From IMG/VR virus record IMGVR_UViG_3300025849_003344: a stretch of DNA of 64,000 nt, one strand, 5' to 3'. This DNA comes from a virus. Its lineage: Duplodnaviria; Caudoviricetes. Positions 3,042 to 48,833 of this stretch are shown here, piece by piece (the stretch's first letter is position 1; every line of letters starts with the position of its first letter). The position numbers and the translations under genes are program-made. Below the pieces are notes generated by a model. The model saw nothing but the letters and a program-made list of their open reading frames with translations, made no database searches and had not been told where the DNA came from.

Positions 3042-5131
3042 TGGCTGATAAAATAACACTGTCTGACTTAAAAGACGAAATTGCAAAAGGTAATAAAGCG
3101 CAGTCAAATACGACTGACGCTATTATGAAGCTTAATTCTACTTTTGCAAAGCAGTTTAAATTGCAGGCACGTGGTGCTGGTGACAGACTAGAAGATAAGC
3201 TAGAAGGATCTAAAACTCCTAAGGTCGTACAAAAAGAAATGACTGGCTTTAAGCCTCTTGACAATGCTAGCGGTAATATCAATGCTTTTTTTGGTAGACT
3301 TGCTAACATCGGAAAAATGCTTGCAGGCTTTACGGCAGGCCTTGCTGCTGTAGCTGCTGCATTTGCGGGCATGCGTGGATGGGAACTTCCTATTCTAAAA
3401 CGAATTAGTAATATTAAGTTTGACAATTTGTTTCCGGAGTCATTATCCAAAACCCTTAATCAAAAATTTCTAAATGTTCGGGCACGTGTATTAAGATTTT
3501 TTAATATGAGTGCGGTTCTTCCTAAGGGTGAAGATGGCAAACAGATCACATCTATTGGTGGGCAAATAGCTAATGCATTTAAGAATGCCAAAGCAAGCAT
3601 ACTCAAAGGATTTGGTATCGGCATTGATGGAAAGCTTATTGCTTTGCAGGGCGAAGATGGTAAATTTAAGTCTCCAAGGATAGGCAGATTCCTTATCCAG
3701 ATGAAATCGCTGTTTAGTCCTATCACTAAAACCTCGGCTGCGATTGGTGAATTCTTTACGAGTGGTTTTGGATCAAAGATAGTTACCTTTATGAAGGGTG
3801 GAGCAACAAAACTTTTAGCAGTATTTGGTAAAATACTTTGGCCTATCGGTGTTCTGGTGTCAGCCTTCAAAGGTGTCACAGACTTTATTGGCACCGAAGG
3901 AACGCTATATGAAAAGTTTACGGCCGGTATTAGTACTGCACTTGCAGACTTCATTGGCGCACCGCTAAACCTTTTAAAGGATCTGATGGCATGGGGTCTA
4001 AAGAAGCTTGGCTTTGATGAAGGCGCCGAATGGCTAAAAGGTATTGACTTTGTTAAACCAATAAAAGATATGATTACTAATGTCATGGAATGGTTCGGTA
4101 CGCTGTTCACAAATCCTGTAGAAGCATTAAAGCAATTATGGACAACACTTCTTGATGGCGTGGCCAGCCTAGGTATGTGGATATATGATAATACTATAAA
4201 ACCAGTGTTTGATTATTTTACTGGTATATTCAAGTGGTCTGTAGACGGTGTAACAAAGGTTACTGATAGCATCGCAACTATAGTAGGAGATATGGTAACC
4301 GGCGCATGGGATTATGTCAAAAAGCTATTTGTATTTGATGAGGGTGTCGAAGGCATTATTGCATCACTAATCAATGTGACGACAATCGTACCTAACCTTG
4401 TCAAAGACGCAATCTTAGGTATTACATCATGGCTAGCCAGCAAACTAGGGTTTAATAAAGAAGCCGAAGAGCTTTCTAAATGGAAAGACTATAGTATAGG
4501 TGATCTTGCTGTAATGGCATTTAACGGCGTTAAAAATTGGTTATCAAGTAAGTTTAGTAGTGAGGTTAATCTAGGCGGACTGTCATTTAGCCTGTCTGAT
4601 ATAGTCACAGCTCTTAGTGATAACATTGGCCTGATGAAGGATATTTTAGTAGCACAGATATCATTCAGTGTTAAAAGGTTGGTTAACGGATTTAAGGCAA
4701 GCTTCGAAAGGGCTGCTAACTTCATAGCAAATCTTGGTGATGAAATATACTTAATGATCTCTAAGAATTTCCGATTTAAACTTCCTGAAATTAATATTCC
4801 TGAAACATTTCTTACACCGGCGTTTAATCTTATCCCAGCAATTGATGTAGGTGTAGGTGATGCAGGCACTAGAGCTGCAGCCCAAACTCGTATTGATAAT
4901 AGGGACACCGAAAGCGCTTCAAGAGTCAATAAGCTACAGAGTGAAACTGGCAATGAATTAGCAAATCTTCAGTCATTGCAAGCTCAGCTAGCATCAAATT
5001 TACAATCGGTTGTTGTTAATAATAATACAACTAATACTGCAAACAATAATTCTTCTAGTGCTAACTCCACAAACTTAAATGGGACCGCCTCTGCAGGCGA
5101 TCCCTTTGCTCTTATGCCAGGGGCATTTTAA
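3041..5131 (+). CDS. Tape measure / baseplate hub protein (gp29 positional analogue)
   Basis: 696 aa, helical with periodic W/F, follows gp26/gp51. Confidence 0.65.
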   Translation: MADKITLSDLKDEIAKGNKAQSNTTDAIMKLNSTFAKQFKLQARGAGDRLEDKLEGSKTPKVVQKEMTGFKPLDNASGNINAFFGRLANIGKMLAGFTAGLAAVAAAFAGMRGWELPILKRISNIKFDNLFPESLSKTLNQKFLNVRARVLRFFNMSAVLPKGEDGKQITSIGGQIANAFKNAKASILKGFGIGIDGKLIALQGEDGKFKSPRIGRFLIQMKSLFSPITKTSAAIGEFFTSGFGSKIVTFMKGGATKLLAVFGKILWPIGVLVSAFKGVTDFIGTEGTLYEKFTAGISTALADFIGAPLNLLKDLMAWGLKKLGFDEGAEWLKGIDFVKPIKDMITNVMEWFGTLFTNPVEALKQLWTTLLDGVASLGMWIYDNTIKPVFDYFTGIFKWSVDGVTKVTDSIATIVGDMVTGAWDYVKKLFVFDEGVEGIIASLINVTTIVPNLVKDAILGITSWLASKLGFNKEAEELSKWKDYSIGDLAVMAFNGVKNWLSSKFSSEVNLGGLSFSLSDIVTALSDNIGLMKDILVAQISFSVKRLVNGFKASFERAANFIANLGDEIYLMISKNFRFKLPEINIPETFLTPAFNLIPAIDVGVGDAGTRAAAQTRIDNRDTESASRVNKLQSETGNELANLQSLQAQLASNLQSVVVNNNTTNTANNNSSSANSTNLNGTASAGDPFALMPGAF

Positions 5132-6027
5132 TCGTCTTGAGCAAGCTTGGCAAAGTATGATAGTGTGTCATCATCATTTGATTTCTCACTAATAGACTCT
5201 GCCGTTACCGGAGCATTAATCATTGGATCAGGTGCTGGCTCATTCATTTGAGCAGCCTGGGCCAATGACTGCTGACCGGCATCTGCAGATTCACCAAGAA
5301 CTTTCATAAGCTTGGCTTTAAGCTCAGCATATGTTTTATAATTCTTAGGATCTTCAAACTCTGCTAGATCGTACATACCATTATATAGAGCTTCAAGCTT
5401 ATCCTCATCGCTAGAGATAGCTGCAGGAGAAGCAAACTCAGACTTATCGTAATTACGATAGCCTTCAACGTTACGAATCTTAAGTTTAAAGTCTGCACCT
5501 TCCCACATATCAAACGGATTTGTAGGAGTTTCGTCCGCAAACTCTGGCTGCATCATATCCATGATTTTGTCATGGATTTTCTTACCATACTGATACAAGA
5601 AGGTTTTGCCTTCACGCTCAGGATTAGCAGGATCTGATACAATTAGAATATTTGAGACATAGTGTAACCGACGCTTTTGTTGGCGTGCAGTTCCTTTATC
5701 CTCTTCGATACCTGTATTCCATAACTTGGAATTCAATTCACCGACAGGATCTGTTTGGCCAATTGATGTAAGAGACCGTTCGATGTACCATTGGCCAGTT
5801 GGGCCTTTAAAACCGTGATCCCAATACCGAACCCAAGGAAGTTCTTGGCCTTCACCGGCTGGAAGGAAACGTAGGACAGCATAGCCGTTGCCGGCTTTAT
5901 CTACTGTTGGTTTCCAGATACGATCATCACCGTAGCTTTTCTTTTCTCCACCACCGCCAGCAGTTTCGGCTGCTTGGATGAGTTTAGAGATTGAGCTTTT
6001 ATTTCGTTTTAGTTCTGCAAAAGACAT
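5128..6027 (-). CDS. gp32: Single-stranded DNA binding protein gp32
   Basis: DDRIWKPTVDKAGNGYAVLRFLPA...HGFKGPTGQWYIERSLT...DDTLSYFAKLAQDD. Confidence 0.95.
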   Translation of the reverse strand: MSFAELKRNKSSISKLIQAAETAGGGGEKKSYGDDRIWKPTVDKAGNGYAVLRFLPAGEGQELPWVRYWDHGFKGPTGQWYIERSLTSIGQTDPVGELNSKLWNTGIEEDKGTARQQKRRLHYVSNILIVSDPANPEREGKTFLYQYGKKIHDKIMDMMQPEFADETPTNPFDMWEGADFKLKIRNVEGYRNYDKSEFASPAAISSDEDKLEALYNGMYDLAEFEDPKNYKTYAELKAKLMKVLGESADAGQQSLAQAAQMNEPAPDPMINAPVTAESISEKSNDDDTLSYFAKLAQDD

Positions 6028-6118: not shown

Positions 6119-7150
6119 TTATTCTTCGAAGACAACGGAATCTCCATCGCTATACTGATCTTCGATCTTTTTCCAATGATCGGGATCAGCGTTATTTATG
6201 GTTTGACAGGCGCCAATAGTATTACATGGATAGCCAATCTTACCATAGTTATGCATCTTAATATTGTTCATAAAGTTTCGGCGTTCAGGTGAATTCCAAA
6301 CTTCTATTAAGGTTTGCTCTTTCAGATTTCCTACAACCAAGTCCTGATTATCATCAAGGCAGCATGCATAGAAATCTCCGTTAGGTGCTACATACATAGT
6401 TTCTGTCATAACATTAACCATAGGACATTTAGAATCTGGGTGAGCTTCAAATTCTCCTGATTTAAATCGAGGTCTTTCTGCCCACATACCTGAACTGCTA
6501 TGTCTAACTACACTCAGCGAGTTGAATATATCTTCGCCTAATATTTCTGTTAGGCTTTTACATACCAAACTGTATGAGCTAAATGGTACACTTGTACCAG
6601 CCGGAATTTGAATTGGGTTCTTGTCATATACCGAGAAGATTGTGGCAGCATATTCAAAGGCAGGCATTACGTTAATACCAAAATCTAAATCAGGATAATG
6701 TTCCATCCGCAAACCTAAGAAATGTTTTAGGTTTTTCATTACAGATTTAAACGGAATACCTTTGACAGCCTTATAAGATTCGTCGTTGTGCCCATCAATA
6801 TTAACTTGAATAGAATCGAACAGTTTCTCTCTCACAAGTATCTCAGCAACCTTCTTAGACATTAGTCCAAAGTTGCTTAGCATATCAACCTTCACATTAG
6901 GAAGTTTCTTTTTAATATATCGAAGGATCTCAACAAAGTCTCTATGATATAGTGCCTCGCCATTTTCACTCATATGCATACGCTGCAATTCATACGGAAA
7001 ATCAGGGTGAGCCGCTTCATCTATAATTTTAAATACTAACTCTTTGTCCATATCAAAATTACTTTTAGTGCCACGACTTGCCGGGCACCACACACAAGTA
7101 GCATTGCATCTATTAGACAGTACAAAATTTATATTCTGAAGTGGTTTCAT
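6119..7150 (-). CDS. Radical SAM protein with C-terminal SPASM/twitch domain
   Basis: CNATCVWC (CxxxCxxC); C-terminal CP...VAPNGDFYACC...GNLKEQTLIEVWNS...C. Confidence 0.9.
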   Translation of the reverse strand: MKPLQNINFVLSNRCNATCVWCPASRGTKSNFDMDKELVFKIIDEAAHPDFPYELQRMHMSENGEALYHRDFVEILRYIKKKLPNVKVDMLSNFGLMSKKVAEILVREKLFDSIQVNIDGHNDESYKAVKGIPFKSVMKNLKHFLGLRMEHYPDLDFGINVMPAFEYAATIFSVYDKNPIQIPAGTSVPFSSYSLVCKSLTEILGEDIFNSLSVVRHSSSGMWAERPRFKSGEFEAHPDSKCPMVNVMTETMYVAPNGDFYACCLDDNQDLVVGNLKEQTLIEVWNSPERRNFMNNIKMHNYGKIGYPCNTIGACQTINNADPDHWKKIEDQYSDGDSVVFEE

Positions 7151-9527: not shown

Positions 9528-9703
9528 CACATACCTCCTCTGCGCAATGCATTAAGAAAGCCATGCTGAAAAGAACTGTCTGCAGGATCATCCTCAAAAG
9601 ATTTAATCGCGGCGAATAAGTCGAAGTCCGGATGTTTCATTTCTTCGGTGGCCGCAGCTTGACCGCTTTGATAGTTATGAAAATTAGTTAAATCAGGTTT
9701 CAT
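9527..9703 (-). CDS. Hypothetical 58-aa protein
   Basis: Hand translation MKPDLTNFHNYQSGQ...LRRGGM; ATGA overlap. Confidence 0.55.
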   Translation of the reverse strand: MKPDLTNFHNYQSGQAAATEEMKHPDFDLFAAIKSFEDDPADSSFQHGFLNALRRGGM

Positions 9704-10047
9704 GCCGCCACCTCGATTTTTTCAAAACCAAAGTTACACACCATGAAGAATTCGCCGTTATCCATTTCAAGGATATCGCCAACTGATGTTGAATGATTAC
9801 GATCGCCAATAACTTCTACAATGTGTTGGTTGTTCCAAAGATTAGTATATTCAAATGCAAGATTTTTATCATCTGTGTGAACTTGGAATGCTTCTGAGTA
9901 GAAAGCAAAGTTTTCGGTTTTAAACTTAGATGCACCAAAGAATGATACGGCCAATTTAGCTGATTGAGCAGGAACTGCATCGTGACCTTCTGCATTGATA
10001 AGGTCTACTTGAGCTTCTGTCAATTGAATTTGGTGAATCTTGATCAT
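9700..10047 (-). CDS. YodL-like domain protein
   Basis: HSTSVGDILE...FFMVCNFGFEKI; early promoter at 10080-10108. Confidence 0.5.
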   Translation of the reverse strand: MIKIHQIQLTEAQVDLINAEGHDAVPAQSAKLAVSFFGASKFKTENFAFYSEAFQVHTDDKNLAFEYTNLWNNQHIVEVIGDRNHSTSVGDILEMDNGEFFMVCNFGFEKIEVAA

Positions 10048-10119: not shown

Positions 10120-10485
10120 CTATTTTTTCACTTTTTTTTCTTTTACAGTGCCATCAGTTCTGCCAATCTGTTCAATTGGTCTATCTGGCCCGCATATTTT
10201 TCTACATGCCCGCGGTGCATATTCAAGACCTTCGTTTGCTCCTTTTACTACAGCATCAGAAAAAGCTAACCATTCATCTGTCAATAGAATATCTTCGATA
10301 GACTCATTATTTGAAAGTTTAAGCTCTTCGTTCAATAATGCGCTATATAGCGGATCTGGCGGTTTGTGCTCATAGTCAATGTGACAACACGGTATTAAAT
10401 ATCCGGTAGCAGTATGAGCAAATCCTTCTTTTTTCATAAGCAAGGATTTTTTAATGAGACACATAGGTTCAAATTCATTTACCAT
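10120..10485 (-). CDS. Stand-alone SPASM/twitch-like Fe-S domain
   Basis: C...TATGYLIPCC...ACRKICG; no CxxxCxxC. Confidence 0.7.
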   Translation of the reverse strand: MVNEFEPMCLIKKSLLMKKEGFAHTATGYLIPCCHIDYEHKPPDPLYSALLNEELKLSNNESIEDILLTDEWLAFSDAVVKGANEGLEYAPRACRKICGPDRPIEQIGRTDGTVKEKKVKK

Positions 10486-11213
10486 ATTTCTTCACTTCCG
10501 TCAGGATAATATACTTTATTTAACATTGGTATCGTAGATTGGAATTCTGTGTCTGGCCTGAATTCTTCGGACGGAAATCGGTTTGAATATACCACGTTAA
10601 ATATGACGCCGATATCACGTGCCATTTTTTTACAAGTTTCAATATCATGTTGGTTGTATTTGAATACAATGTATTTCCATATGATATTATTAGGATCCAT
10701 GTATTCTGTAGACATCTTCATCATATCAAAAAGCTTTTTGCCGTCTTGCCTTACACGATACTTGTGTGAATCTTCTGGTAGTCCGTCTATTCCAAAAAAC
10801 CACGAAATATTTTCATTAGTACATTCTTCATATATTTCTTTGTACCACTTTACTGGCTTATGTGATGCTGCTGTGTGTACTGAGGCACTTTTACCATACT
10901 CTATAACCTTGTGCAATATGCCTTTAAAATCTGGATGCATAGACGGGTCTGAAACTTGTCCACTAAAATCAAAATGGTCAAAATACTTAAGATACTTTTC
11001 AAAGTCTTTTATAGAAAGTGTCTCACCTAAAACTTTACCATATTTTTTCATATGCTGTAAGCGTCTGCAACATGGGCATTCTAACGTGCATTTATTAGAT
11101 ATATCCATGTTGATAGTACGAGAAAAGTTTACGTGCGGATTAGATCTTTCAAGAAAGTGGAGTAGTGTCTGGTTCATCACAAAAGGTCCTGCATGCAGAT
11201 GGAAGAGTTTCAT
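10479..11213 (-). CDS. Radical SAM core protein (no SPASM domain)
   Basis: CTLECPCC; SGQVSDP in place of the GGEP motif; FGIDG. Confidence 0.85.
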   Translation of the reverse strand: MKLFHLHAGPFVMNQTLLHFLERSNPHVNFSRTINMDISNKCTLECPCCRRLQHMKKYGKVLGETLSIKDFEKYLKYFDHFDFSGQVSDPSMHPDFKGILHKVIEYGKSASVHTAASHKPVKWYKEIYEECTNENISWFFGIDGLPEDSHKYRVRQDGKKLFDMMKMSTEYMDPNNIIWKYIVFKYNQHDIETCKKMARDIGVIFNVVYSNRFPSEEFRPDTEFQSTIPMLNKVYYPDGSEEIW

Positions 11214-11523
11214 AGCTTTCCCATGATTCAGGAAGATCTACGTTAAACCAATCAGAAGTCAATATTTCTTCAAGGGTGTGGCCATTCAAATTATACTTAT
11301 GCCTATTCTTTTTATACTTATTTAATACAGACCCATCCTTATCCCAGCCAGACCTGTTTGATGGATCTGATAGGTTTAAGAAATTGGTATTACCTAAATA
11401 GCAACACGGTAGTACCTGACCATCTGGGTTTACGAGTATTTTTTCTTCATTTAACCACTTGCACGTAATGCATGGTTTATTCTCTGTGAGATCTGTGTCC
11501 ATGGATTGTCCAATCTTTAGCAT
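11149..11523 (-). CDS. Stand-alone SPASM/twitch-like Fe-S domain
   Basis: C...VNPDGQVLPCCY...ACRTFC. Confidence 0.75.
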   Translation of the reverse strand: MLKIGQSMDTDLTENKPCITCKWLNEEKILVNPDGQVLPCCYLGNTNFLNLSDPSNRSGWDKDGSVLNKYKKNRHKYNLNGHTLEEILTSDWFNVDLPESWESYETLPSACRTFCDEPDTTPLS

Positions 11524-12277
11524 ACTTGCTTTTGTCAGTTTTATTATGTGTTGCCATCATATTCTTTGAAGCATTATCGATCCAAGGATTTTGAATTATG
11601 TGATTTAAGTCTTTAGTTATTTCTTCAAGAACTTCTTTTTCACCAAACTCATTAATAAACTCAAACCTATCATTGATCAAAAATCTATCAGACTTAATAA
11701 TATAGACTTCTTGGGCACCGTACATTCTACACATTTTTCTTATATCATAGACATAATCTTGATTGTGTTTGAATAGAATTATAAACGCTTTTGTATGAGC
11801 ACGTGTAATAGAAAGTGCTTCCATGTTGTTAAGCGTTATGTTTAAATCTACACCTTTCCTGTACTTCTGATGCATTTCGTTATCAACACCATCAATATCA
11901 AAATATACCGTCAGGCGCTCTTTACAATAGTTTCCAAGATCTTCCCACCAAGTTTCTGTTCGCATTCCACCGTTTGTATTCAAATGTATTTGAGCATCCG
12001 AGTTATCGATAATATATTTACATATTTTGCCAACATCTTTACTCATAATAGGATCACCCCAAGTTCCACAAATTTCAAACTGTGAAACAAAGTCTATTGA
12101 TCCTGGCGGAAACTTTCGTGTAAAGTCTTCTAACGACCATTTTATAAGTGGAAGCCATGGCATCTTACCAAGCCCGTTAGGATCAGTACGGTGACATTGT
12201 GGGCAAGCTGCATTACAATATGTAGAAAGGTCTAGCGCAATTCTAACTTGCTTATTTACTAAATCAGCAAATGACAT
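11477..12277 (-). CDS. Radical SAM core protein
   Basis: YCNAACPQC, GTWGDP, LNTNGG, FDIDG. Confidence 0.9.
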   Translation of the reverse strand: MSFADLVNKQVRIALDLSTYCNAACPQCHRTDPNGLGKMPWLPLIKWSLEDFTRKFPPGSIDFVSQFEICGTWGDPIMSKDVGKICKYIIDNSDAQIHLNTNGGMRTETWWEDLGNYCKERLTVYFDIDGVDNEMHQKYRKGVDLNITLNNMEALSITRAHTKAFIILFKHNQDYVYDIRKMCRMYGAQEVYIIKSDRFLINDRFEFINEFGEKEVLEEITKDLNHIIQNPWIDNASKNMMATHNKTDKSKYAKDWTIHGHRSHRE

Positions 12278-12876
12278 GATGTTAACGCCTCCAGATACTC
12301 TAATGTTTTTTCAGGCTCTTCAAAATACCTCATCTTGTCTTCGCGCGATTCAAATACTTTATGATTTGGGTAGGTATGTAGTTGTAGTCCGATAACTTCT
12401 TCAAAAGTAATCTTCTTATCATATTGCGTCATTTTTCCTAAAGTGCGAGCTTGCATTAGATGGTAAGCAGAAACAACCGTCACATATTCATACGGTACCT
12501 TTATATCGCCAAGATTGTTTAACACTTTATTTTTATCTCTATCATATGATACTGACCAATATTGGCCATAGCCATCAGTCTCTTGTTTATATTGCATTAT
12601 AAGATTTGACATTATGTGATCAACCATATCTTCTCTTGGGGCTAGTACATGTATTTCACACTCTTTAATAATATCCTGGTAGTGTACGATATAGCGCCCC
12701 AATTGTAAAAACATCACTTTAGCGATATAAGGGTTTATATTGCTTCTATCAATTGAGTTAATAGTTTCAAGCTTTTCACCGGCATCAATAAGATTGTGTT
12801 CTTGAGCCATAGCCCTTTGATAATATGTAGATGCAGTTCTTGGTACCGATACTATCAAAATATTTTTACGGGTCAT
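12259..12876 (-). CDS. Sulfotransferase-like P-loop protein
   Basis: ILIVSVPRTASTYY resembles the 5'-PSB loop; start moved to 12876 (ATGA overlap). Confidence 0.55.
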   Translation of the reverse strand: MTRKNILIVSVPRTASTYYQRAMAQEHNLIDAGEKLETINSIDRSNINPYIAKVMFLQLGRYIVHYQDIIKECEIHVLAPREDMVDHIMSNLIMQYKQETDGYGQYWSVSYDRDKNKVLNNLGDIKVPYEYVTVVSAYHLMQARTLGKMTQYDKKITFEEVIGLQLHTYPNHKVFESREDKMRYFEEPEKTLEYLEALTSCHLLI

Positions 12877-13922
12877 GGATGTAAATCGTCTGGTTTTGAT
12901 TCTGTATAAGAATCCATTAACCAATTTGCAATTTGATCTTCTACTAAATGTCGGAGTTTATTATATTCATTGAGCTTTTTTCGCCGAGCAGTCATAGTAG
13001 ATAACTTATCATAAATGACCTTAAGCTCATCCGTAGGCAGGTTCCATATCGATAGGTGCCTCGGATAAAGCACGGTATTAAACCAAAGCTTTACATCATG
13101 CTTATGACAAAAGTCTAAGAACGATGGCATCTCTTCCCAGTTATTACGCATAGGATTTACCATAACCGATATTTGTACATCCTTCTTCTTACAGTGATCC
13201 TTAAAGATTTCTAAGTTTTCCATAACTTTACTGAGATCGCCGTTAATACGAATTTTTGAATATGCCTCAGGAATTAAACTATCAATACTAATGTTGATTT
13301 GGATGTTACAGATATCTAATAGATGGCGTACTCGCTTATTCATCACAGTACCATTTGTAGCAATACTAATAGGAAGACCAGGATTGATTTCTGCTATGTC
13401 TTCGCAAATATCTAACACTAGTTTTTGAGCAAATGGTTCTCCGCCATTAAATCGAAGCTCTTTAAGATGCGGATAGTATTCCTTTAATTGCTCTCTAAAT
13501 GAATCATCATACGGTTCTAGCATTCCACGATGATCGCCCATACCGGCTTTCTTTGCAAGGCCATTACTTAATAGTGGTGAACACATTATACATTCGAGAT
13601 TACACTGGTTGCTTACCTCAAGCTCAATCATGCTTGGATAACCATTCTTATTCACAGGTAATTCGCCATATGCCTTTGCAAGAGGCCATACGTCATTATC
13701 CATTTCGTGCTTGCACTCTTTACATCTATCTAAGAATTTGTTTTGTAATAGCGCATCACGATACTTTTGAAAATGCTCACCATTCCATATATCATTTACA
13801 GATCGATCCTTAGACCACTTGTCACCAAATCCAGGAAGCTTCCAACACGGAGCAACTTCACCTTGGGTGTTAAAATACATATTATTAAATGGAGCATTAC
13901 ATGGGGAAAATTCACCGTACAT
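12873..13922 (-). CDS. Radical SAM protein with N-terminal SPASM/twitch domain
   Basis: N-terminal CNAP...GEVAPC...CKEC; core CNLECIMC, NGGEP, TNGT. Confidence 0.9.
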   Translation of the reverse strand: MYGEFSPCNAPFNNMYFNTQGEVAPCWKLPGFGDKWSKDRSVNDIWNGEHFQKYRDALLQNKFLDRCKECKHEMDNDVWPLAKAYGELPVNKNGYPSMIELEVSNQCNLECIMCSPLLSNGLAKKAGMGDHRGMLEPYDDSFREQLKEYYPHLKELRFNGGEPFAQKLVLDICEDIAEINPGLPISIATNGTVMNKRVRHLLDICNIQINISIDSLIPEAYSKIRINGDLSKVMENLEIFKDHCKKKDVQISVMVNPMRNNWEEMPSFLDFCHKHDVKLWFNTVLYPRHLSIWNLPTDELKVIYDKLSTMTARRKKLNEYNKLRHLVEDQIANWLMDSYTESKPDDLHP

Positions 13923-15024
13923 TATCTAATATCTCACTCCATTCAGGAAAAGCTTTTGCAAAATTATTGTCTCTCAGTTCATCATAGTATTTTATATGTG
14001 CTCGAAAGTGTTCGATCTTATTAACGCCTTCTAAGTTCATTCTATTAAGTATCAACTGAATTCGTTCGTCTTTATTATCTTTAAACTTCTTGTTTACGAT
14101 TGCTTTTACTTCAACCGGCAAATTAGTGATATTTAGATTCACCGGTTGTTCAACATATTGAATTGAAACCGGTGTGCCAAAATCATCAGCATATTCTAAA
14201 AACTCATCTATGTAGTATATATTGTACCAGTTCATAGTACAATTAAACATTACTTTATCCGGAAAATTGTTTATAAATTTTATAAAGTTTTTTTCTATAA
14301 CTTCAAAGTCTGAGCCTTCACGCTGATAGTTATTTCTTTCATAGATATCATCTAAACTTATTCTAATATCAAGCGACTTCAGTTTTTTTAGCTGAGAGAC
14401 AAACTTAGTATTCCAGTGAGTTCCGTTTGTGACCATTAAAGTTCTTATGTCATTAAGACCTTCTTCGTCTATGTAATCCATAATCTTTTTAATTTCTTGA
14501 TTTACAAATGGTTCGCCACCTGCAAATAGGATATAATCAGCTTGCTTCAGCCAATCGCGTATGATTGGCTCGTGATGTGTGCCGAGTATTTTATGAGCTA
14601 GATAATGTGCTCTCACGTCAGGCGTTTCGGTTTCTTTTGCAATTTGACTAGAATTGAATGATCCACACATACGGCATTTAAGGTTGCACACATTTGTAGT
14701 TTTAAATTCCCAAAATACAGGCGGAGTATCTAAAACGGCGGACTTGAATTTTTCGGGCAGTAACTTATCATCGGTCCAACGATTTATTACCTGCCTAAGA
14801 CTTTCAATACCTGATTCTTCGGCCTTCCAGCAATCATTACATTCTTTAGGTTTTTCACCATCTAAAAACCTTTGACGAAGATCTTGGAATTTTTCATTAT
14901 TCCAGCCTTCATCAATTCGCTCATCTTTCATATCCGATAATGATTTTGGATATCGACAGCATGGCAATAGCACGCCCCTGGGATCTATAGACAATTGTGT
15001 AAAAGGTGCACTGCAAAAGCTCAT
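13912..15024 (-). CDS. Radical SAM protein with N-terminal SPASM/twitch domain
   Basis: N-terminal CSAP...GVLLPCC...CNDC; core CNLKCRMC, AGGEP, TNGT. Confidence 0.9.
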   Translation of the reverse strand: MSFCSAPFTQLSIDPRGVLLPCCRYPKSLSDMKDERIDEGWNNEKFQDLRQRFLDGEKPKECNDCWKAEESGIESLRQVINRWTDDKLLPEKFKSAVLDTPPVFWEFKTTNVCNLKCRMCGSFNSSQIAKETETPDVRAHYLAHKILGTHHEPIIRDWLKQADYILFAGGEPFVNQEIKKIMDYIDEEGLNDIRTLMVTNGTHWNTKFVSQLKKLKSLDIRISLDDIYERNNYQREGSDFEVIEKNFIKFINNFPDKVMFNCTMNWYNIYYIDEFLEYADDFGTPVSIQYVEQPVNLNITNLPVEVKAIVNKKFKDNKDERIQLILNRMNLEGVNKIEHFRAHIKYYDELRDNNFAKAFPEWSEILDNVR

Positions 15025-16105: not shown

Positions 16106-17098
16106 ATGCACAGATTTTTACTGATAGCCGCTTTTCTTGCGGCCGGGCCAGTCTATGGTCAAGTGGCTAATGATGCTGATGGTAATTATGATTCTACAAG
16201 TTATGTGAACACAGATAGCAATACGACTACTACGACCGATAGCACAGTAAATAGCACCAATACTAATAACAACACATCTGCTATTACGAGCACAAATACT
16301 AATACAAATAACAATAATAACACCTCGAATTCAACTTCGACTAATACTAATACTAACGCAAATACCAACACTAACACTAACACTAATACCAATAATACGA
16401 CAGTAAATTCTACTGGAAACAACACCAATACAAACACTAATACAAATACTAATACAAGTAATAACACAAATAATAACACAAATAATTCTACCGTAAACTC
16501 AACAAGTAATAACACAAACAATTCAACTGTAAATAGTACGTCCACCGTTGACCAGACGGTAAATTCAACTGCTACTAACACTAACACCAATACTAACACT
16601 AATAGTAACACAAATAATACCACAGTAAATTCTACTGGAAATAACACAAACACAAATCAGAACACATCCGATATTACTCAAACATTAAAGACTCCACCTC
16701 CATCGGCCATTGCGCCGACTGTTATGCTAGGCGGAAATGATACATGTACTGTTTCTTATTCAGCTGCAGTTCAAACTCAGATCTTAGGTGCTTCTGGTGG
16801 TGGTACAGTTCGTGACTTAAATTGTGAACGTCTTAAAAATGCCAAAACACTTTATAACATGGGCATGAAGGTAGCATCGGTTGCTTTGATGTGTCAAGAA
16901 AAATCAATATTTGAAGCTATGGAAATGGCCGGAACTCCATGTCCGTTCAAAGGTACTATTGGAACTGAAGCTCAAGCGTTGTGGGATAATGATCCTGCTC
17001 GGAAACCTGTGGCCCAAAGAGGAAATCAAGATAATGATGCAGTCAAGAAGATTCTTGCTGGTGTGTTATTTGTTGCTTTGTTGTCACTCGGCCTATAG
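16106..17098 (+). CDS. Exported Asn/Thr-rich protein with Cys-containing domain and C-terminal anchor
   Basis: Signal peptide, about 150 aa of TN repeats, PPPSAIAP...C...CERLK...MCQ...PCP, hydrophobic tail. Confidence 0.8.
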   Translation: MHRFLLIAAFLAAGPVYGQVANDADGNYDSTSYVNTDSNTTTTTDSTVNSTNTNNNTSAITSTNTNTNNNNNTSNSTSTNTNTNANTNTNTNTNTNNTTVNSTGNNTNTNTNTNTNTSNNTNNNTNNSTVNSTSNNTNNSTVNSTSTVDQTVNSTATNTNTNTNTNSNTNNTTVNSTGNNTNTNQNTSDITQTLKTPPPSAIAPTVMLGGNDTCTVSYSAAVQTQILGASGGGTVRDLNCERLKNAKTLYNMGMKVASVALMCQEKSIFEAMEMAGTPCPFKGTIGTEAQALWDNDPARKPVAQRGNQDNDAVKKILAGVLFVALLSLGL

Positions 17099-19157
17099 CC
17101 AAACTACAACTAATGCTGAACTAGCGCCCGAAGATCCTTATGAGGCAGTGCCTGGTGTTCCGTATATCAGTGACAATTTAGTTGAAGATCCTCTATCGTG
17201 GAGTGGGCCCGAAAGTCAAGGAGATTGTACGTATCGTCCGGCTGGTCATGGAGCGTACGCTAGCGATGAAAGAATTTTTGCGGGTGATTGGTATTCTAAT
17301 CCAGGCTATCGTGGTTGCCCCCAAATATCTGAAGATGGTACAATGCGGTTTAGTTGGCGCCCTGAAGATAATATGGGGCTGGTTAATACCATTGATGATA
17401 ATAGTATGGACAGTAAGATCGCGGCTTACGCTGCAGCCTTTGGTGATCTAGGTATCACAGTCAATGGATACACATACTCATGGATAATTAAAAGTAAAGA
17501 TGCCGAGAATGCTGAGAATACAATAGCCGAAGGGCCTTATGATAAGAAGGGTTTGGGGTATAGTCAGGATTTATTATCTATTCAAGTTGAGTTTCTAGGT
17601 GAAACTAACGAAGATGTTCTGTTCGATAAAACGTATGATTATGACTATCAAATCGCAAACTGGACCACTTTTAGTGGACAAGAAGATTTTGAACTAGATG
17701 GCAAAGATGTTAGTAAGATTCGTATGACTATCAATGGATATGATGCTGGCTATAGTATGGGGTATTATGGACCTGAAGTTCGAGATGTACAATTACAGTT
17801 GTTGTTTACTGTAAAGGAAGCGCCTATTGATTGCGCCGCTGATCCTGGATCTAGTCCTACATGCTATGGCTATCAAGATGCTTTCAATGAATCAATTGGA
17901 TTACCGACTCAAGCTGAAATGATAGCTGATCTAGAAAAAGAGTATGGAGGTTATGATGATGGTATTCCAGAGTTTGATGGGCAAGATGATGGTATTCCAG
18001 AGTTTGATGGACAAGATGATGGTATTCCAGAGTTTGAATTGACTGAAGCTGAGAAGCAAGGTATGGATGCTGAAATAGAAGCAATGGGTAGCATTGTAGA
18101 TGATGGTTCTATGAATGGGTCATTTGAAGATGACGGTTCTATACCAATGGATGGATCATTTCCTGAAGATAGCTTTTCTGGGAATTTAGCGGAAGACTAT
18201 AGCGGCATTCCTTTGGATGATTTTAGTAGTAAGCCAGAAGAGGCCTTTGATAGTGAGCCTGACCAATTCTTTGAACCACTAGAAGAAATTGACGCCACAG
18301 GCCTCCCACCGGTTGATGAGGTGTTCATAGAAGAGCTTCCAATTTTAGATGATAACTTACCAACAGATATATCCAATGAAACACAAAAGGCGCCTAGCAT
18401 TTCTATTAATCCTATTGCTATTGCAAAAGGTGCAGCAAATGCTGGAAATGTTGTGGCAACTGAAGCAACGAGTGAGGCGCTTACTTCGTCAGCTGTATCA
18501 TCAGAATCCGATATAACATTTAGCACTAATCAAAGTCTTACTGCATCAATAAACAGCAATACAATAGATGCAAACCCTGGACAGACTAATGCTTTTGGCC
18601 AGATTGAAAGTAATATGGGCGGAGGATTTGATGGATCGGATAGTGGATATGGTGATGGTGCCGAAAATATTGGATCTAATGGTGATATTGTTATAGATAA
18701 TAATGCTATTGATTTTAGTCAACAGGATTTTAATTCCAACTTTGATAATACTAATGAATATGAAGTTGTTGGAATTACTGTAGAGATTGAGATTGACGCG
18801 ATTAGTTCTAAGCTCGTAAATAATGCTATTAAAAATATAGTTAACACACTTATCGAGCAAGGACAAATAGTGCCTGAAGAAGAACAGTCTCCAGGCCTAG
18901 ATAATAATGCAGAAGACGCTTTAGTTGAAGCGGCAATATCTGGTGATACTAGTGAAGATGCTCAGTCTGCATTACTTGGTTATAATCCAAACTTTCGAGT
19001 CTATGTAACTCCTCAGATGCCAGATAATACTTTCTATCTGCCAAAGGACATTTACCCTGGACAAGAAAATTATGATAACCCGGCCGGGCGTTTCTTTAGC
19101 GGTGCTTCGGATGAAAAGCATAAAGAAATGGTCCGGCAGCAATACGAAAGAAATTAA
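17034..19157 (+). CDS. Large acidic exported protein with putative carbohydrate-binding (FBA-like) domain
   Basis: Signal peptide MMQSRRFLLVCYLLLCCHSAYS; GYDAGYSMGYYGPEVRDV; D/E-rich C-terminal half. Confidence 0.7.
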   Translation: MMQSRRFLLVCYLLLCCHSAYSQTTTNAELAPEDPYEAVPGVPYISDNLVEDPLSWSGPESQGDCTYRPAGHGAYASDERIFAGDWYSNPGYRGCPQISEDGTMRFSWRPEDNMGLVNTIDDNSMDSKIAAYAAAFGDLGITVNGYTYSWIIKSKDAENAENTIAEGPYDKKGLGYSQDLLSIQVEFLGETNEDVLFDKTYDYDYQIANWTTFSGQEDFELDGKDVSKIRMTINGYDAGYSMGYYGPEVRDVQLQLLFTVKEAPIDCAADPGSSPTCYGYQDAFNESIGLPTQAEMIADLEKEYGGYDDGIPEFDGQDDGIPEFDGQDDGIPEFELTEAEKQGMDAEIEAMGSIVDDGSMNGSFEDDGSIPMDGSFPEDSFSGNLAEDYSGIPLDDFSSKPEEAFDSEPDQFFEPLEEIDATGLPPVDEVFIEELPILDDNLPTDISNETQKAPSISINPIAIAKGAANAGNVVATEATSEALTSSAVSSESDITFSTNQSLTASINSNTIDANPGQTNAFGQIESNMGGGFDGSDSGYGDGAENIGSNGDIVIDNNAIDFSQQDFNSNFDNTNEYEVVGITVEIEIDAISSKLVNNAIKNIVNTLIEQGQIVPEEEQSPGLDNNAEDALVEAAISGDTSEDAQSALLGYNPNFRVYVTPQMPDNTFYLPKDIYPGQENYDNPAGRFFSGASDEKHKEMVRQQYERN
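17955..18037 (+). repeat. 30-bp in-frame tandem repeat, about 2.8 copies (DDGIPEFDGQ)
   Basis: gatgatggtattccagagtttgatgg(g/a)caa units at 17955, 17985, 18015. Confidence 0.95.
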
Positions 19158-23021: not shown

Positions 23022-23627
23022 CTATTTTAATTTATTCACGACTACTTCTACATTGTCAGGCAATGAGACCTTTGGCTTACCGTGCATGTGATGTACGACG
23101 AATTGTGTGTTAGGAAACTCACGAAATAAGCCTTCCCAAATAGGTCGCCAGTTTACGGCTAATCGGTGTGTGTTAAATGCATCTCTATTTGAATTAAGTA
23201 CAAAGTCAGTGGTACTAATTAGATTAAAGTCAAATATTGAATCAAATCCGTACATATGGATCTCATCGCAGTTAAGCTTGTTTGCTGTATAATGAGTACA
23301 CATATGCCCACAGTTAAAGTCGGTGTAGTTATTAGCATATCGTGGTAGATCTAAATAGAAATCTTTAATATGCCTAGAAAAGCGCATATGGAATTGTGGA
23401 TTCATCTCAGTGAATTTTTTAGGCCTTGCACCCATAATCCAATCGTATCCACGTAAGTCCACACTACCCTCTTCAATAGCGCGACACATTTTAAAATCTA
23501 CGATAGCTGTACCATACACATTATCAATGGCGGTAGGTGGCAGATTGCATGTGAGCTTTAAGCCCTTAGCGGGTTTATAGAACCTGTAACTATCACCATT
23601 ACCAATAATATGAGCAACCTTAGGCAT
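23022..23627 (-). CDS. Glycan-cluster protein with IIGNG motif (DUF115/GT-like)
   Basis: AHIIGNGDS...NCG...EIHMYGFD. Confidence 0.55.
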   Translation of the reverse strand: MPKVAHIIGNGDSYRFYKPAKGLKLTCNLPPTAIDNVYGTAIVDFKMCRAIEEGSVDLRGYDWIMGARPKKFTEMNPQFHMRFSRHIKDFYLDLPRYANNYTDFNCGHMCTHYTANKLNCDEIHMYGFDSIFDFNLISTTDFVLNSNRDAFNTHRLAVNWRPIWEGLFREFPNTQFVVHHMHGKPKVSLPDNVEVVVNKLK

Positions 23628-24288
23628 TCATTAAACTCCGAATATGTTCTTTACCCTTCGCACCAGTGTGATGCTTAATGCGGATATCTTTAACTTTGTT
23701 ACCATCAAGTCCATCTAATCGTAGGTAGTTATATTGTGGTGGTAACCTGTTTATGTATATAGCCTTTGCAAGAGGATCTAACATAGCGTGTAAGACTTCT
23801 TGATCTCCACGTTGCTGTGGATTTTCGAAGCATGCCTGTGCCCACCTTCTTAGCATCTCAGGTTTACCCTCAAATGCGACAACGCCTGAGTTGTACCATT
23901 CTTCTCCTGACCGTTTAGTCCATGGTGTATCCATACACATATTCAGTTTTTGTGCTAAACAATGATTCCAAATATCTGAAATATTACCAACCACTTCACA
24001 ATCAACATCAACCCATACTGTTCGTTTGTATGGTGAGTTCATCATTGCGCCAGGTTTTTTAAACCATGTTGCTTGACCAGTTGCTTGCTCAAGGTGTCCA
24101 ATAGAACTAACTTTTGTTTCAACATAGTCAATCATTTTTTGGGACATACCAAAATTTATAACTGACAATGGCATATCATTATGTTTATAATAATTCTCAA
24201 TAAACCAAGGGAGCATCCATTCAGCTTCTCTATCACATCCGGTTAGGACGCATTCACTTAAATCAGGTTTAGACATCAATAATCTCAT
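23620..24288 (-). CDS. GT-A glycosyltransferase (GT8/GT77-like)
   Basis: WFKKP...VWVDVDC (DxD)...YNSGVV...GDQEVL...HHTG. Confidence 0.8.
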   Translation of the reverse strand: MRLLMSKPDLSECVLTGCDREAEWMLPWFIENYYKHNDMPLSVINFGMSQKMIDYVETKVSSIGHLEQATGQATWFKKPGAMMNSPYKRTVWVDVDCEVVGNISDIWNHCLAQKLNMCMDTPWTKRSGEEWYNSGVVAFEGKPEMLRRWAQACFENPQQRGDQEVLHAMLDPLAKAIYINRLPPQYNYLRLDGLDGNKVKDIRIKHHTGAKGKEHIRSLMNA

Positions 24289-24922
24289 ATCTTTGGTTAA
24301 AATTATGTTTGGCTTGACAACCGGCCGGAGCTTGAATTGTAGTAAATGTATCTTTGGCTTCTACAGGCCATGGATATATTTCTTCAAGGAAGGGAAAAGT
24401 CGCTTTATTTAGAAACACGTCTGTAGGACGAGCTTCCATAATTGCTTGTTGAATAAGCTGTTCAGCTCCCGCCGGATTTACTCTATACGCATGCGCACCA
24501 GGGAAATACGGTTTAGACACCAACGGTTGAACACCAAACCGTATAGGTTGATTGAACCTGCCATAAGACGGTTGTCCTAACGATACACATCCTTTAAACA
24601 CCATATTAGAACTAATATTATTAATACATATTGCGTCATGTTCAAAGATAGTAATCGATTCTTTGGTGCGTACACATTCTTGCCATAAGCTGAAATGTGA
24701 TAGGAATGCAGCAATACAATTTTCCGTACGAGAATATACTTCATCCATTGCTGCAACATTAATGCCAAAGGCTTTTACTATACCATTTAAATCATCGGCC
24801 GGAGTAGTAGCTTTCCATTTTTCAATAGTAAGTCCACCTGTGCTTAAACCAGATTTAATACACCGCTCTGCAGCCTTAACAGACTTTTCGTTATCAGCTA
24901 TAGTAATTACGTAATGTTTCAT
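24269..24922 (-). CDS. Glycosyltransferase family 25-like
   Basis: AFLSHFSLW...IFEHDA...GAHAYRV. Confidence 0.8.
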   Translation of the reverse strand: MKHYVITIADNEKSVKAAERCIKSGLSTGGLTIEKWKATTPADDLNGIVKAFGINVAAMDEVYSRTENCIAAFLSHFSLWQECVRTKESITIFEHDAICINNISSNMVFKGCVSLGQPSYGRFNQPIRFGVQPLVSKPYFPGAHAYRVNPAGAEQLIQQAIMEARPTDVFLNKATFPFLEEIYPWPVEAKDTFTTIQAPAGCQAKHNFNQRYEIIDV

Positions 24923-25617
24923 AATGTAGTTGTACTAGGAAGTCCTTGTACCCTTGTATAATATCGTTTGGTGACCCGTAGGAAATTAAAGTTCTGATAA
25001 CAAAGAAGCGCGTCGTTTGGCCATGCTCCAATTCTATTAACAGTTTCGATAACCTTCTTAGCTGCGCTTGGTGTAATTATATATGCACTGTTTCCGGCTA
25101 ACCCTTGAGGCACATCCCATGTGTCAATCTTAGGTAATTGTTGTATTACCTTATCATTTTTTTGTATAATATCGTGGAATAATCCTGCCATACGTGTAGC
25201 ACCACGAGGATCATTGATGCCCAGCACACAGTCATATCCTGGCTCAGCCTCGCCAGGATCAACTAGCTTATTAGTAAATATTGCATCATGTTCTAGAATT
25301 AAATAATTCTCAGATGATTTAGCAGCTTCTTTCCACAACCTATAATGACTCATAAAACATGCTACGCGTTTACGCGGATCTGCACCAGAGTATGCACTTA
25401 GTTTCAAACCTGTTGCTATATCAGATTGCTGACCTTCCCACGGATAAGTCCAACGTAAACCTTCACGTGTAAAAAGCTTATTACTTTCATCTGCCGTAAT
25501 AGCATCGAAGGTTTTAATATCAAACTCATTCTCAAATAAGGCCGAAGATTCTCTTAATACTCCGGCCCCTGTTTCAGAAAGATGATTGCCTTTAATAGTT
25601 ATTACTCTAGCTTGCAT
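24919..25617 (-). CDS. Glycosyltransferase family 25-like
   Basis: ACFMSHYRLW...ILEHDA...GNSAYIITPSAA. Confidence 0.8.
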   Translation of the reverse strand: MQARVITIKGNHLSETGAGVLRESSALFENEFDIKTFDAITADESNKLFTREGLRWTYPWEGQQSDIATGLKLSAYSGADPRKRVACFMSHYRLWKEAAKSSENYLILEHDAIFTNKLVDPGEAEPGYDCVLGINDPRGATRMAGLFHDIIQKNDKVIQQLPKIDTWDVPQGLAGNSAYIITPSAAKKVIETVNRIGAWPNDALLCYQNFNFLRVTKRYYTRVQGLPSTTTL

Positions 25618-47760: not shown

Positions 47761-47794
47761 CCGCATTAATTTAGAGTGTATCATTTATGTTACT
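47761..47794. repeat. Direct repeat R copy 2, one arm of a 13-bp stem-loop adjoining an early promoter
   Basis: taaattaatgcgg-cgttaa-ccgcattaattta; 34 bp shared with copy 3. Confidence 0.95.
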
Positions 47795-48833
47795 TTACGA
47801 CGGAAGTTTCCTCTAATACTATTTCGTCACCGTCTTTATACGTATCAGACATTCGTTGTAAGGCATTATCGGTTATACCGAGTGTTTGACAAGCACCAAC
47901 AGTGTTGCATGGATATCCTATTTTATCGAACCTTTGCATCTTTAAATTATTAACAAAGTTTATACGATCTTGAGACTTCCAGATTTCTAACACAGTGCTC
48001 TCTTTAAGGTTACCAAGAACCTTGTCGTTATTATCATCTAAGCAACAAACATAGTAATCTCCGTTTGGAGCAATAAACATTTCCTCTTCAACTCGCTTGA
48101 TTAAGGGGCACTTCAAATCAGCATCGATTGCAAACTCACCAGTCTTAAATCGTTCTCTCTCTGCCCACAACCCAGGTTTGCTATGTCTAAATGTAAACAA
48201 TTCGTCATACAAATCTTGGCCCAAATAATCTAATACAGATTGTTGTGTTAGTTCAAAGGAACTAAAAGGAACAGATTCGCCGGGTGGGTGTTGGATAGGG
48301 TTCTTATTAAAAGCGTTAAACACAGCTAGTGAATATTCAAATGCTGGCATAACATTAATGCCAAAAAACATTTCAACGCCAAGTTCTTTTTTGATCTCTA
48401 AGAACTCTTTTACATTCTTCATTACAGAAGAGAAGCTAATCCCTTTTACCGATCTATATGCTCTATCGTTGTGCCCATCTACGTTGACTTGAATAGAGGT
48501 CAGTAGATTCTCTTCAAGTAATACACGCGACATTCTCTTAGACATTAAGCCAAAGTTGCTCAACATATCAATTTCTGTGTTGGGCAAATTCTTTTTAATA
48601 TAACGGAGAATGTCTACATAACTTTTATGATAAAGACCCTCACCATTCTCACTCATATGAATATTTTTAATCTCATATGGAAAATCAGGATGTGAGACCT
48701 CATCTATAATTTTATAGACAAGTTCAGCATCCATATCAAACGCAAGTTTAGTGCCCCGTGAAGTAGGGCACCAAACACATTTTGCATTACATCTATTAGA
48801 TAGCGCAAAGTTTAAGTTACGTAGTGGTTTCAA
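47790..48833 (-). CDS. Radical SAM/SPASM protein, paralog of 6119-7150
   Basis: TTG start; CNAKCVWC; IAPNGDYYVCC; 53/69 identities over the N-terminus by manual alignment. Confidence 0.9.
   Translation of the reverse strand: MKPLRNLNFALSNRCNAKCVWCPTSRGTKLAFDMDAELVYKIIDEVSHPDFPYEIKNIHMSENGEGLYHKSYVDILRYIKKNLPNTEIDMLSNFGLMSKRMSRVLLEENLLTSIQVNVDGHNDRAYRSVKGISFSSVMKNVKEFLEIKKELGVEMFFGINVMPAFEYSLAVFNAFNKNPIQHPPGESVPFSSFELTQQSVLDYLGQDLYDELFTFRHSKPGLWAERERFKTGEFAIDADLKCPLIKRVEEEMFIAPNGDYYVCCLDDNNDKVLGNLKESTVLEIWKSQDRINFVNNLKMQRFDKIGYPCNTVGACQTLGITDNALQRMSDTYKDGDEIVLEETSVVK

Follow-up and report, generated by a model that had tools for sequence, protein, structure and literature searches.

Whole and split radical SAM enzymes in an operon of an uncultured marine T4-like phage, with a gene context that points to carbohydrate tailoring

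Radical S-adenosylmethionine (SAM) enzymes that act on sugars are, to our knowledge, few in number, and each of those described, such as BtrN, DesII, AprD4, NeoN, and BlsE, has revealed new chemistry. The prototype twitch radical SAM enzyme is BtrN, the 2-deoxy-scyllo-inosamine dehydrogenase of butirosin biosynthesis (PDB 4m7s/4m7t), where a single auxiliary [4Fe-4S] domain with the pattern C-x17-C...C-x2-C is fused to the C-terminal side of the core. Here we analyze an operon of seven overlapping open reading frames (ORFs), lettered A to G along the minus strand from position 15024 to position 10120 of IMG/VR record IMGVR_UViG_3300025849_003344, a stretch of 64,000 nucleotides from an uncultured marine T4-like phage that we refer to as the window; two further radical SAM ORFs in the same window are lettered H and I (Table 1). 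Computation of gene structure, domain architecture, ligand conservation, the split-versus-fused relation, the fold of C, and neighborhood associations leads us to read the operon as four radical SAM enzymes, two of them assembled from separately encoded parts, together with a sulfotransferase-like protein, in a gene context that leans toward carbohydrate substrates. The likeness to BtrN lies in the single-cluster auxiliary domain and in a carbohydrate-like substrate that would fit this context; the operon differs from it in that the twitch domain is N-terminal in A and B and a separate polypeptide in E and G, with cores that are not specifically BtrN-like.

Two further groups of described enzymes bear comparison. 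The family NF033640 (N_Twi_rSAM) is defined by features that A and B share, namely a four-Cys N-terminal twitch and the CX3CX2C, GGEP, and NGT motifs, but it has no known function, and here its members have neighbors that encode split radical SAM enzymes and a sulfotransferase-like protein. The radical SAM/SPASM maturases of RiPPs (peptides made by the ribosome and modified after translation) and the anaerobic sulfatase-maturating enzymes (anSME) likewise combine a radical SAM core with a Cys-rich auxiliary domain and have several genes clustered, whereas the present operon has no RRE domain, no precursor, and no seven-Cys SPASM domain, and its proteins score far under the equivalog cut-offs. 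The best scores to the MoaA, QueE, PqqE, NirJ/Ahb, and anSME equivalog models are 30-76 bits against cut-offs of 231-650, with no Moa, Que, or Pqq pathway model reached at its cut-off, as an original prediction made from the sequence letters had also held.

Marine T4-like phages are known to carry up to 12 radical SAM genes per genome, in cassettes that vary between close relatives, as well as genes related to glycosyltransferase family 8 (GT8) and lipopolysaccharide (Nishimura 2017, PMC5332604; Zaragoza-Solas 2020, PMC7029224). Both studies list the genes only, without architecture, split enzymes, a sulfotransferase link, or function, and our search of the literature on radical SAM enzymes with sulfotransferases or GT8 in phages found nothing specific. 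New here, as far as we could find, are the split core/twitch architecture, the occurrence of three twitch topologies in one genome, the predicted Stf0/NodH-like fold of C and its rapid evolution, and a control-based comparison of gene neighborhoods.

Four radical SAM enzymes, two of them split

A and B are best classified as paralogs within NF033640, each with an N-terminal four-Cys twitch domain ahead of its radical SAM core. A scores 289.3 bits against the family cut-off of 170, and B is borderline at 168.8 bits, 1.2 below it; the two proteins are 26% identical (BLASTP E 5e-20), and in both a Pfam SPASM match (residues 4-66 in A and 8-71 in B) is followed by a Radical_SAM match (PF04055; 35.6 bits in A and 55.5 in B, gathering cut-off 29.5). 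A full SPASM motif reads CX9-15GX4C ... CX2CX5CX3C ... C, and a twitch domain has the CX9-15GX4C hairpin and two further Cys. The ligand sets are Cys4, 22, 62, and 65 with CX3CX2C at 113-120 and GGEP at 169 in A, and Cys8, 26, 67, and 70 with CX3CX2C at 107-114 and GGEP at 160 in B. The four twitch residues C4, C22, C62, and C65 (A numbering) are invariant in A, B, and five phage homologs; they would support one auxiliary cluster, which is the twitch type, and do not amount to the seven-Cys SPASM motif. A search of PDB sequences with A alone returned nothing at E 0.01 or better, and the N-terminal part of a profile built from A, B, and five Vibrio-phage homologs matches residues 165-259 of BtrN (4m7s; E 5e-10). 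No ORF of the operon falls in a known pathway family, one of the two outcomes that the original prediction had named as refuting it, yet the N-twitch pair does belong to a named family, albeit one without known function.

D has a radical SAM core (Pfam Radical_SAM 37.5 bits; CX3CX2C at 21-28; GTWGDP at 71) and no auxiliary-cluster domain of its own, and among its homolog clusters, which number more than 569, many are split forms of ~250-270 aa and others are fused forms of ~350 aa with a C-terminal SPASM match. The missing piece appears to be E, which matches Pfam SPASM (23.5 bits, cut-off 21.5) and aligns with residues 242-324 of the fused 354-aa homolog P0129 at 34% identity (E 9e-15). Across split and fused forms the domain keeps C21, NPDGQVxPCC (C40/C41), C111, and C115 invariant, and the resulting pattern, C21-x13-G-x4-C40(C) followed by C111x3C115, implies one auxiliary cluster and a twitch rather than a seven-Cys SPASM domain. 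Neither the E-family profile (nothing meaningful) nor a fused D/E homolog (nothing at E 0.01 or better) finds a counterpart among PDB sequences. Pairs of the split D/E type are found time and again, in dozens of viral contigs.

The same arrangement is probably repeated in F and G, on a weaker basis than for E. F carries CX3CX2C at 42-49, is 28% identical to D (BLASTP E 5e-12), and matches phrog_21308 (E 5e-16), with a Pfam Radical_SAM score of 18.9 bits that lies under the 29.5 cut-off. G matches no family model, but its Cys9, 33, 34, 94, and 98 lie in motifs that follow the order seen in E (GYLIPCC, I.DIL..W, CRKIC), and hhalign places it against the E family with E 0.008 over 75 columns, aligning GxxxPCC, I.DIL..W, and CxxxC. 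The predicted F-G complex scores 0.90 in three of three runs, against 0.00 for the best control, with at least 78% of contacts common to the runs and a partner pLDDT (predicted local distance difference test) of at least 78; in calibration, 58 of 80 solved complexes attained the score mark, as did 2 of 110 mismatched pairs. In the predicted interface, G residues 19-28 lie against the F strand just ahead of CX3CX2C. Since solved radical SAM/SPASM enzymes have such packing within one chain, the score may stem from remembered intramolecular packing, and it speaks for likeness rather than for binding. Together, the hhalign match and the complex prediction point to G as the probable detached twitch domain of F.

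These relations change the count of enzymes. The original prediction had described six radical SAM/SPASM ORFs, two of them free-standing SPASM domains; since E and G appear to be the detached C-terminal domains of the cores directly upstream, as fused homologs, alignment, and the F-G prediction suggest, the operon is better described as encoding four radical SAM enzymes (A, B, D+E, and F+G) plus C, and the supposed SPASM domains as twitch-type subunits whose 4-5 Cys suffice for a single auxiliary cluster. CX3CX2C and a SAM motif of the GGEP type are present in each of the four cores, and four Cys in each of the four auxiliary domains, so that the loss of Fe-S ligands from several ORFs, which the original prediction had named as grounds for abandoning it, is not seen. 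The cores match solved structures at superfamily level only (CteB, viperins, MoaA, and BlsE). We considered whether a programmed frameshift might fuse D with E, or F with G, and rejected the idea: E lies in the +1 frame of D and G in the -1 frame of F, which leaves no common mechanism, the F/G junction is an ordinary start-stop overlap (ATGGTAA), and the genes are kept separate in many relatives.

H and I, which are 60% identical to each other, were confirmed as radical SAM proteins with a C-terminal SPASM/twitch domain (Pfam Radical_SAM and SPASM), bringing the radical SAM/SPASM ORFs in the window to the eight originally counted. The C-terminal domain of H matches the same region of BtrN as the N-twitch profile does (4m7s, E 6e-7), and H lies on the operon strand 3 kb downstream; it appears related to the operon, which does not imply membership. 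The window thus holds the twitch domain in three topologies, N-terminal in A and B, C-terminal in H and I, and detached in E and G. We know of no earlier description of a radical SAM core whose twitch subunit comes from a gene of its own.

Table 1. Radical SAM genes, gene C, and other features of the window discussed in the text
Feature	Coordinates	Strand	Description
Gene A	13912..15024	-	370 aa; radical SAM with N-terminal BtrN-like twitch
Gene B	12873..13922	-	349 aa; paralog of A, architecture as A
Gene C	12259..12876	-	205 aa; predicted sulfotransferase-fold protein
Gene D	11477..12277	-	266 aa; radical SAM core without its own auxiliary-cluster domain
Gene E	11149..11523	-	124 aa (117 aa from Met8 at 11502); putative detached twitch-type domain of D
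Gene F	10479..11213	-	244 aa; second radical SAM core, paralog of D
Gene G	10120..10485	-	121 aa; probable detached twitch domain of F
Gene H	6119..7150	-	343 aa; radical SAM with C-terminal BtrN-like twitch
Gene I	47790..48833	-	347 aa; paralog of H, 60% identical
Second glycan-type cluster	23022-26927	-	overlapping 200-230-aa genes: weak GT8, GT25 x2, Methyltransf_24, Sulfotransfer_2
NAD-dependent sugar epimerase	62654-63592		
APS-kinase-like P-loop ORF	60875-61294	-	139 aa, by uvsX; PDB 2yvu E 1.2e-3
HxGH nucleotidyltransferase	60472-60882	-	136 aa, after the APS-kinase-like ORF; weak NMNAT-like matches

The tight coupling of the operon, also part of the original prediction, was borne out, with all seven ORFs present on the minus strand at 10120-15024. 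Read from the sequence, the junction overlaps are 11 nt (A/B), 4 nt (B/C, ATGA), 19 nt (C/D), 26-47 nt (D/E), 65 nt (E/F; 53 nt in the diverged relative L010), and 7 nt (F/G). A promoter and terminator scan of the operon gave sites no commoner than in shuffled sequence and is hence uninformative; it showed no internal terminator. Given the overlapping co-directional ORFs, the lack of an internal terminator, and a gene order that is kept in relatives, the operon is most likely translationally coupled and one unit. Its DNA has no match among 50,697 phage records. In a marine metatranscriptome, short contigs cover parts of A, C, D, and G, and carry-over of DNA may account for them.

Near-identical cassettes occur in several independent metagenome contigs. 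Gene order is unchanged in relatives with 97-99% identity at the nucleotide level and, for B-C-D-E-F-G, also in L010, at identities of 74, 40, 84, 78, 60, and 66%, respectively, with the same start of F; D is still 70% identical in L012, a distant T4-like contig. Against the relative L006, genes A, B, D, E, F, and G together show 43 synonymous and 7 nonsynonymous differences, and C shows 0 synonymous and 7 nonsynonymous ones (Fisher P = 1.3e-5 against the other six genes); relatives that are ~98-99% identical in C differ from it by 7-8 nonsynonymous and 0-2 synonymous changes. Such counts indicate diversifying or relaxed selection on C and, taken with the L010 identities, mark C as the fast-evolving member of the operon and D as the most conserved one. 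All seven ORFs are intact, and the counts place six of them (A, B, D, E, F, and G) under purifying selection. Separately, a 7-nt insertion at 10134, near the 3' end of G, is present in L007, L008, and run X7 and gives a product of 126 instead of 121 aa with unaffected Cys motifs.

This pattern bears directly on the idea that the locus is a decaying, non-functional array of paralogs in which the split genes are frameshift debris. That two of the four enzymes are split, that F and G score poorly on family models, and that C has an excess of nonsynonymous changes would all be expected of such an array, but in lineages whose C is just 36-40% identical the splits are still there, with no frame or ligand lost; six of the seven genes show mainly synonymous substitutions; the recurrence of split D/E-type pairs extends to many viral contigs; and near-identical copies of the stretch are present in marine metagenomes of several studies, other than the samples that may be its source. 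We regard decay as a most improbable account of the operon.

Gene C and a possible supply of activated sulfate

The ORF originally listed for C has 221 aa (12259-12924); a 205-aa form is found in public collections and by gene finders, and Met17 at 12876 is likely the true start. A single-sequence fold of C was unusable (pLDDT 42), and the model discussed here was made by AlphaFold with a 20-sequence alignment (pLDDT 82.6). Its top VIA-align match is Stf0 (1tex; Z 9.4, root-mean-square deviation 3.3 over 155 residues), the mycobacterial trehalose 2-sulfotransferase, ahead of SULT1B1 (Z 8.9) and NDST1 (Z 8.0). Nine of the 11 top matches are sulfotransferases, spanning residues 1-205, whereas P-loop kinases align with residues 1-166 only, at Z of 7.7 or less. 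Foldseek likewise places a sulfotransferase first among PDB entries (3rnl, E 7e-4), and the best-fitting Swiss-Prot model is that of NodH, the Nod-factor sulfotransferase (probability 1.0, template modeling score 0.46). Stf0 and NodH, the best structural matches, both act on carbohydrates. Sequence identity to them is ~10-11%, and C is shorter than either and lies under the Pfam cut-offs; its use of 3'-phosphoadenosine 5'-phosphosulfate (PAPS) is a prediction.

C belongs to a very narrow family: an exhaustive HMMER search yielded four representatives only, and a profile search 23 proteins, all from marine samples; the profile finds nothing relevant among PDB sequences. In three of six family members, Sulfotransfer_3 appears at E 0.003-0.1. 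Residues R13, A15, S16, R81, D86, and S90 are invariant in 20 homologs, the first three within the loop VPRTASTYY, and resemble the 5'-phosphosulfate (PSB) loop and the Arg...Ser 3'-phosphate motif of PAPS enzymes, features that Stf0 and NodH have. Neither a Walker A motif (GxxxxGK[ST]) nor its lysine was found in C. In light of the fold and these invariants we consider it quite likely that C is a PAPS-dependent sulfotransferase, and the P-loop sulfotransferase-like ORF of the original prediction does have a predicted sulfotransferase fold, albeit at modest Z and without reaching any family cut-off.

A source of activated sulfate could be encoded elsewhere in the window. Next to uvsX lies an ORF that resembles adenosine 5'-phosphosulfate (APS) kinase, whose orthologue in the 151-kb relative G002 matches PF01583 at 28.3 bits (cut-off 21.1), and with the adjoining HxGH nucleotidyltransferase it could supply PAPS to the two sulfotransferase-like genes of the phage. 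The second of these belongs to the glycan-type cluster, 8 kb from the operon, where a weak GT8 match and two GT25 matches lie at 23.6-25.6 kb, and the stretch from these same two GT25 matches through one Methyltransf_24 and one Sulfotransfer_2 match covers 24.3-26.9 kb. The glycosyl-, methyl-, and sulfotransferases originally ascribed to the genome are therefore real matches, and the order of the cluster is kept in L012 at 52-76% identity.

Gene neighborhoods and competing readings

Neighborhoods were compared by clustering all neighboring ORFs of 78 marine viral loci that hold an E-type domain, with 80 loci around uvsX from the same phage group as control, a check that the original prediction had proposed. 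Radical SAM and twitch pieces average 3.6 per viral locus. Sugar-type neighbors are enriched: GT8 is present in 28 of the 78 loci (36%), an SGNH-like family, assigned by block motifs and a TesA match, in 32 (41%), and a carbamoyltransferase in 22 (28%), each against 0 of 80 controls. UDP-glucose dehydrogenase was rejected as a specific partner, being found at 14% of the cassette loci and 64% of the controls.

Individual loci show the same company. In L012, only C-D-E occupies the same genomic position, followed by two ORFs and then a KdsB-like cytidylyltransferase (126 bits against NF003952, under its cut-off), and a GT25/methyltransferase/sulfotransferase cluster lies nearby as it does in the window. 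The two intervening ORFs of L012 (11901-13060; 201 and 185 aa) have no family match, and their C-terminal stretches look alike by eye, so that they may be paralogs. An A-type Fe-S carrier (PF01521) lies at 7956-8237 of L012, ~2 kb from C-D-E, and also occurs in L013 and L014; no homolog of it was found in the window. L017, taken from a contig of 151 kb, reads GT8, D-like, E-like, radical SAM, SPASM protein, and carbamoyltransferase. As for the N-twitch family, phage KVP40 has such a radical SAM gene together with a GT1 gene and a small ORF, and Vibrio phage K566 has four, with two GT8 genes and one GT4-like gene interspersed among them.

The N-twitch family also reaches far into bacteria, where we examined 79 loci (L021-L099), mostly from metagenome-assembled genomes of Bdellovibrionota, Bacteroidota, Acidimicrobiia, and Planctomycetota. 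Tandem arrays with at least two copies within 13 kb, and up to eight, occur in 60 of these loci (L067, L071, L026, and L055 are examples), especially in Bdellovibrionota, and the recurrent neighbors include GT1/GT4, radical SAM-SPASM proteins, NAD-dependent epimerase/dehydratases, carbamoyltransferases, methyltransferases, and GDSL proteins. To judge by these neighbors, the bacterial loci mostly carry the signature of polysaccharide loci.

In light of these neighborhoods (GT8, the SGNH-like family, carbamoyltransferase, glycosyltransferases, and the KdsB-like gene), we somewhat favor, by no wide measure of confidence, the operon as a carbohydrate-tailoring cassette of this phage, with a substrate class drawn from gene context. 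The original prediction had offered multi-step glycan, DNA, or protein tailoring; tailoring fits, and among the three options the neighborhoods favor glycan. Several observations weigh against this reading. NF033640 and the D/E family have no known substrate, product, or activity, and their nearest solved relatives are related at superfamily level only. The Fisher P of 3e-8 or smaller for GT8, the SGNH-like family, and carbamoyltransferase overstates independence, the loci being interrelated, and one control position (uvsX) was used. The fold matches of C, at Z of 8-9.4, barely exceed the stated noise level of the tool, and C lies under every Pfam and NCBIfam cut-off (PF13469, PF09037, and PF00685 were the sulfotransferase families tried), with 13.3 bits against 27 for Sulfotransfer_3 and no NCBIfam match. 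Furthermore, C is present in only 3 of the 78 viral loci, so that sulfation appears to be a lineage-specific addition that lies outside the core chemistry. Lastly, some neighbors of the two families, taken up below, also fit other substrates.

One such alternative is maturation of a peptide or protein, in which the enzymes would install crosslinks, epimerizations, or formylglycine-type oxidations on a phage or host protein or a small precursor and C would sulfate a tyrosine or hydroxyl in the manner of TPST and RaxST. Peptide maturases are numerous among SPASM/twitch radical SAM enzymes, the operon has weak NCBIfam matches to CcpM, PapB, WgkB, and others (E 1e-12 to 1e-5, far under the cut-offs), tyrosylprotein sulfotransferases are among the fold matches of C (Z 7.2-7.6), and many small ORFs of 55-115 aa follow the operon; moreover, the commonest bacterial neighbors of the N-twitch family, B12-binding radical SAM proteins (8 loci) and PhyH dioxygenases (7 loci), also fit peptide natural-product clusters. 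However, a Pfam search of A, B, D, and F turned up no PqqD/RRE domain, the small ORFs past the operon do not consistently accompany the cassette, which in L012 is followed by other genes, and no peptidase or exporter is among the annotated recurrent neighbors, where sugar enzymes recur instead. The most widely shared of the small ORFs, of 115 aa at 9700-10047, was rejected as a precursor, since it occurs in only 9 of the 78 loci (the others in at most 4) and lacks core-peptide features. We consider peptide maturation unlikely.

The other alternative is that the cassette acts on DNA bases, nucleotides, or tRNA, in hypermodification or as a defense against restriction. Phage thymidine hypermodification pathways include radical SAM enzymes, one fused D/E homolog has NT5C, IMPDH-like, aminotransferase, and 2-oxoglutarate (2OG)-oxygenase genes next to it, and the window is rich in genes of nucleotide metabolism, with the large and small subunits of ribonucleotide reductase and ThyX in addition to gp32. 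The families of the cassette nevertheless associate with genes for GT8, SGNH-like proteins, and carbamoyltransferases rather than with those for hydroxymethylases or DNA transferases, and the N-twitch family is plentiful on bacterial chromosomes, where it sits in glycan-type loci; we know of no sulfated DNA base, and a sugar attached to DNA would in any case belong to the carbohydrate explanation. Action on nucleic acids as such seems to us improbable.

Among the remaining genes of the window, gp32 (5128-6027), UvsX, a gp41-type helicase, and PhoH accompany the nucleotide-metabolism genes, and in close relatives (97-99% identical) T4 baseplate genes lie just past gp32. Upstream of the operon, on the plus strand, an ORF of 330 aa that begins like a signal peptide and carries long repeats of Asn and Thr (NTNTN...; 16106-17098) overlaps an Asp/Glu/Ser-rich ORF of 748 aa (16911-19157), both without a Pfam match, and the pair (16106-19157) may be the counterpart of a curli-like region that has been reported in pelagimyophages. 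Ordinary T4-like accessory genes, all on the minus strand, include a Cas4-like PD-(D/E)XK nuclease (28528-29211), a DUF932 protein (49936-50886), a DUF6267 protein (44175-45422), and a cytidylyltransferase-like/DUF5824 protein (42614-43744).

Proposed chemistry and significance

In light of the architecture and neighborhoods presented here, we propose a scheme in which substrate class, reaction types, PAPS use, and acceptor are inferred. Each of the four enzymes would bind SAM through one [4Fe-4S] cluster and carry a second, auxiliary [4Fe-4S] cluster of the BtrN type, the latter held by an N-terminal fusion in A and B and by a separate small subunit, encoded by the next gene, in D+E and F+G. 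Cleavage of SAM would give a 5'-deoxyadenosyl radical that takes hydrogen from a sugar C-H, and the auxiliary cluster may then accept an electron, as in BtrN, leading to oxidation, epimerization, or deoxygenation of the sugar. In this lineage, the Stf0/NodH-like protein C would transfer sulfate from PAPS to the edited sugar, and the glycosyltransferases of the phage (two GT25 and one GT8-like) would use that sugar on an acceptor, for which a host envelope glycan, a virion protein, and a sugar attached to DNA are the candidates.

A bolder and rather doubtful extension of this scheme is that abundant marine phages encode a new class of carbohydrate-editing radical SAM enzymes, some of them two-subunit enzymes with a separate auxiliary Fe-S protein, which together with a fast-evolving sulfotransferase and an APS-kinase-like gene might build a sulfated, radically edited sugar of the 3-deoxy-D-manno-oct-2-ulosonic acid (Kdo) or heptose type that re-coats the infected cell or the virion.

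The analysis links uncharacterized radical SAM families with glycan genes, both in phages that are common in seawater and in bacteria, predatory ones among them. The split core and twitch subunit offer a natural system for studying how an auxiliary cluster docks on its core, and KVP40 and its relatives, which are cultured and in which the N-twitch family adjoins a glycosyltransferase, provide a tractable model. If the enzymes do edit sugars, their activity would define how large marine phages alter the surface of cells or virions, with a bearing on superinfection exclusion, the masking of receptors, and evasion of grazing or defense; and if they do form a new class of the kind outlined above, their chemistry would be new, and so would the way in which phages and hosts contend over surfaces in the ocean.

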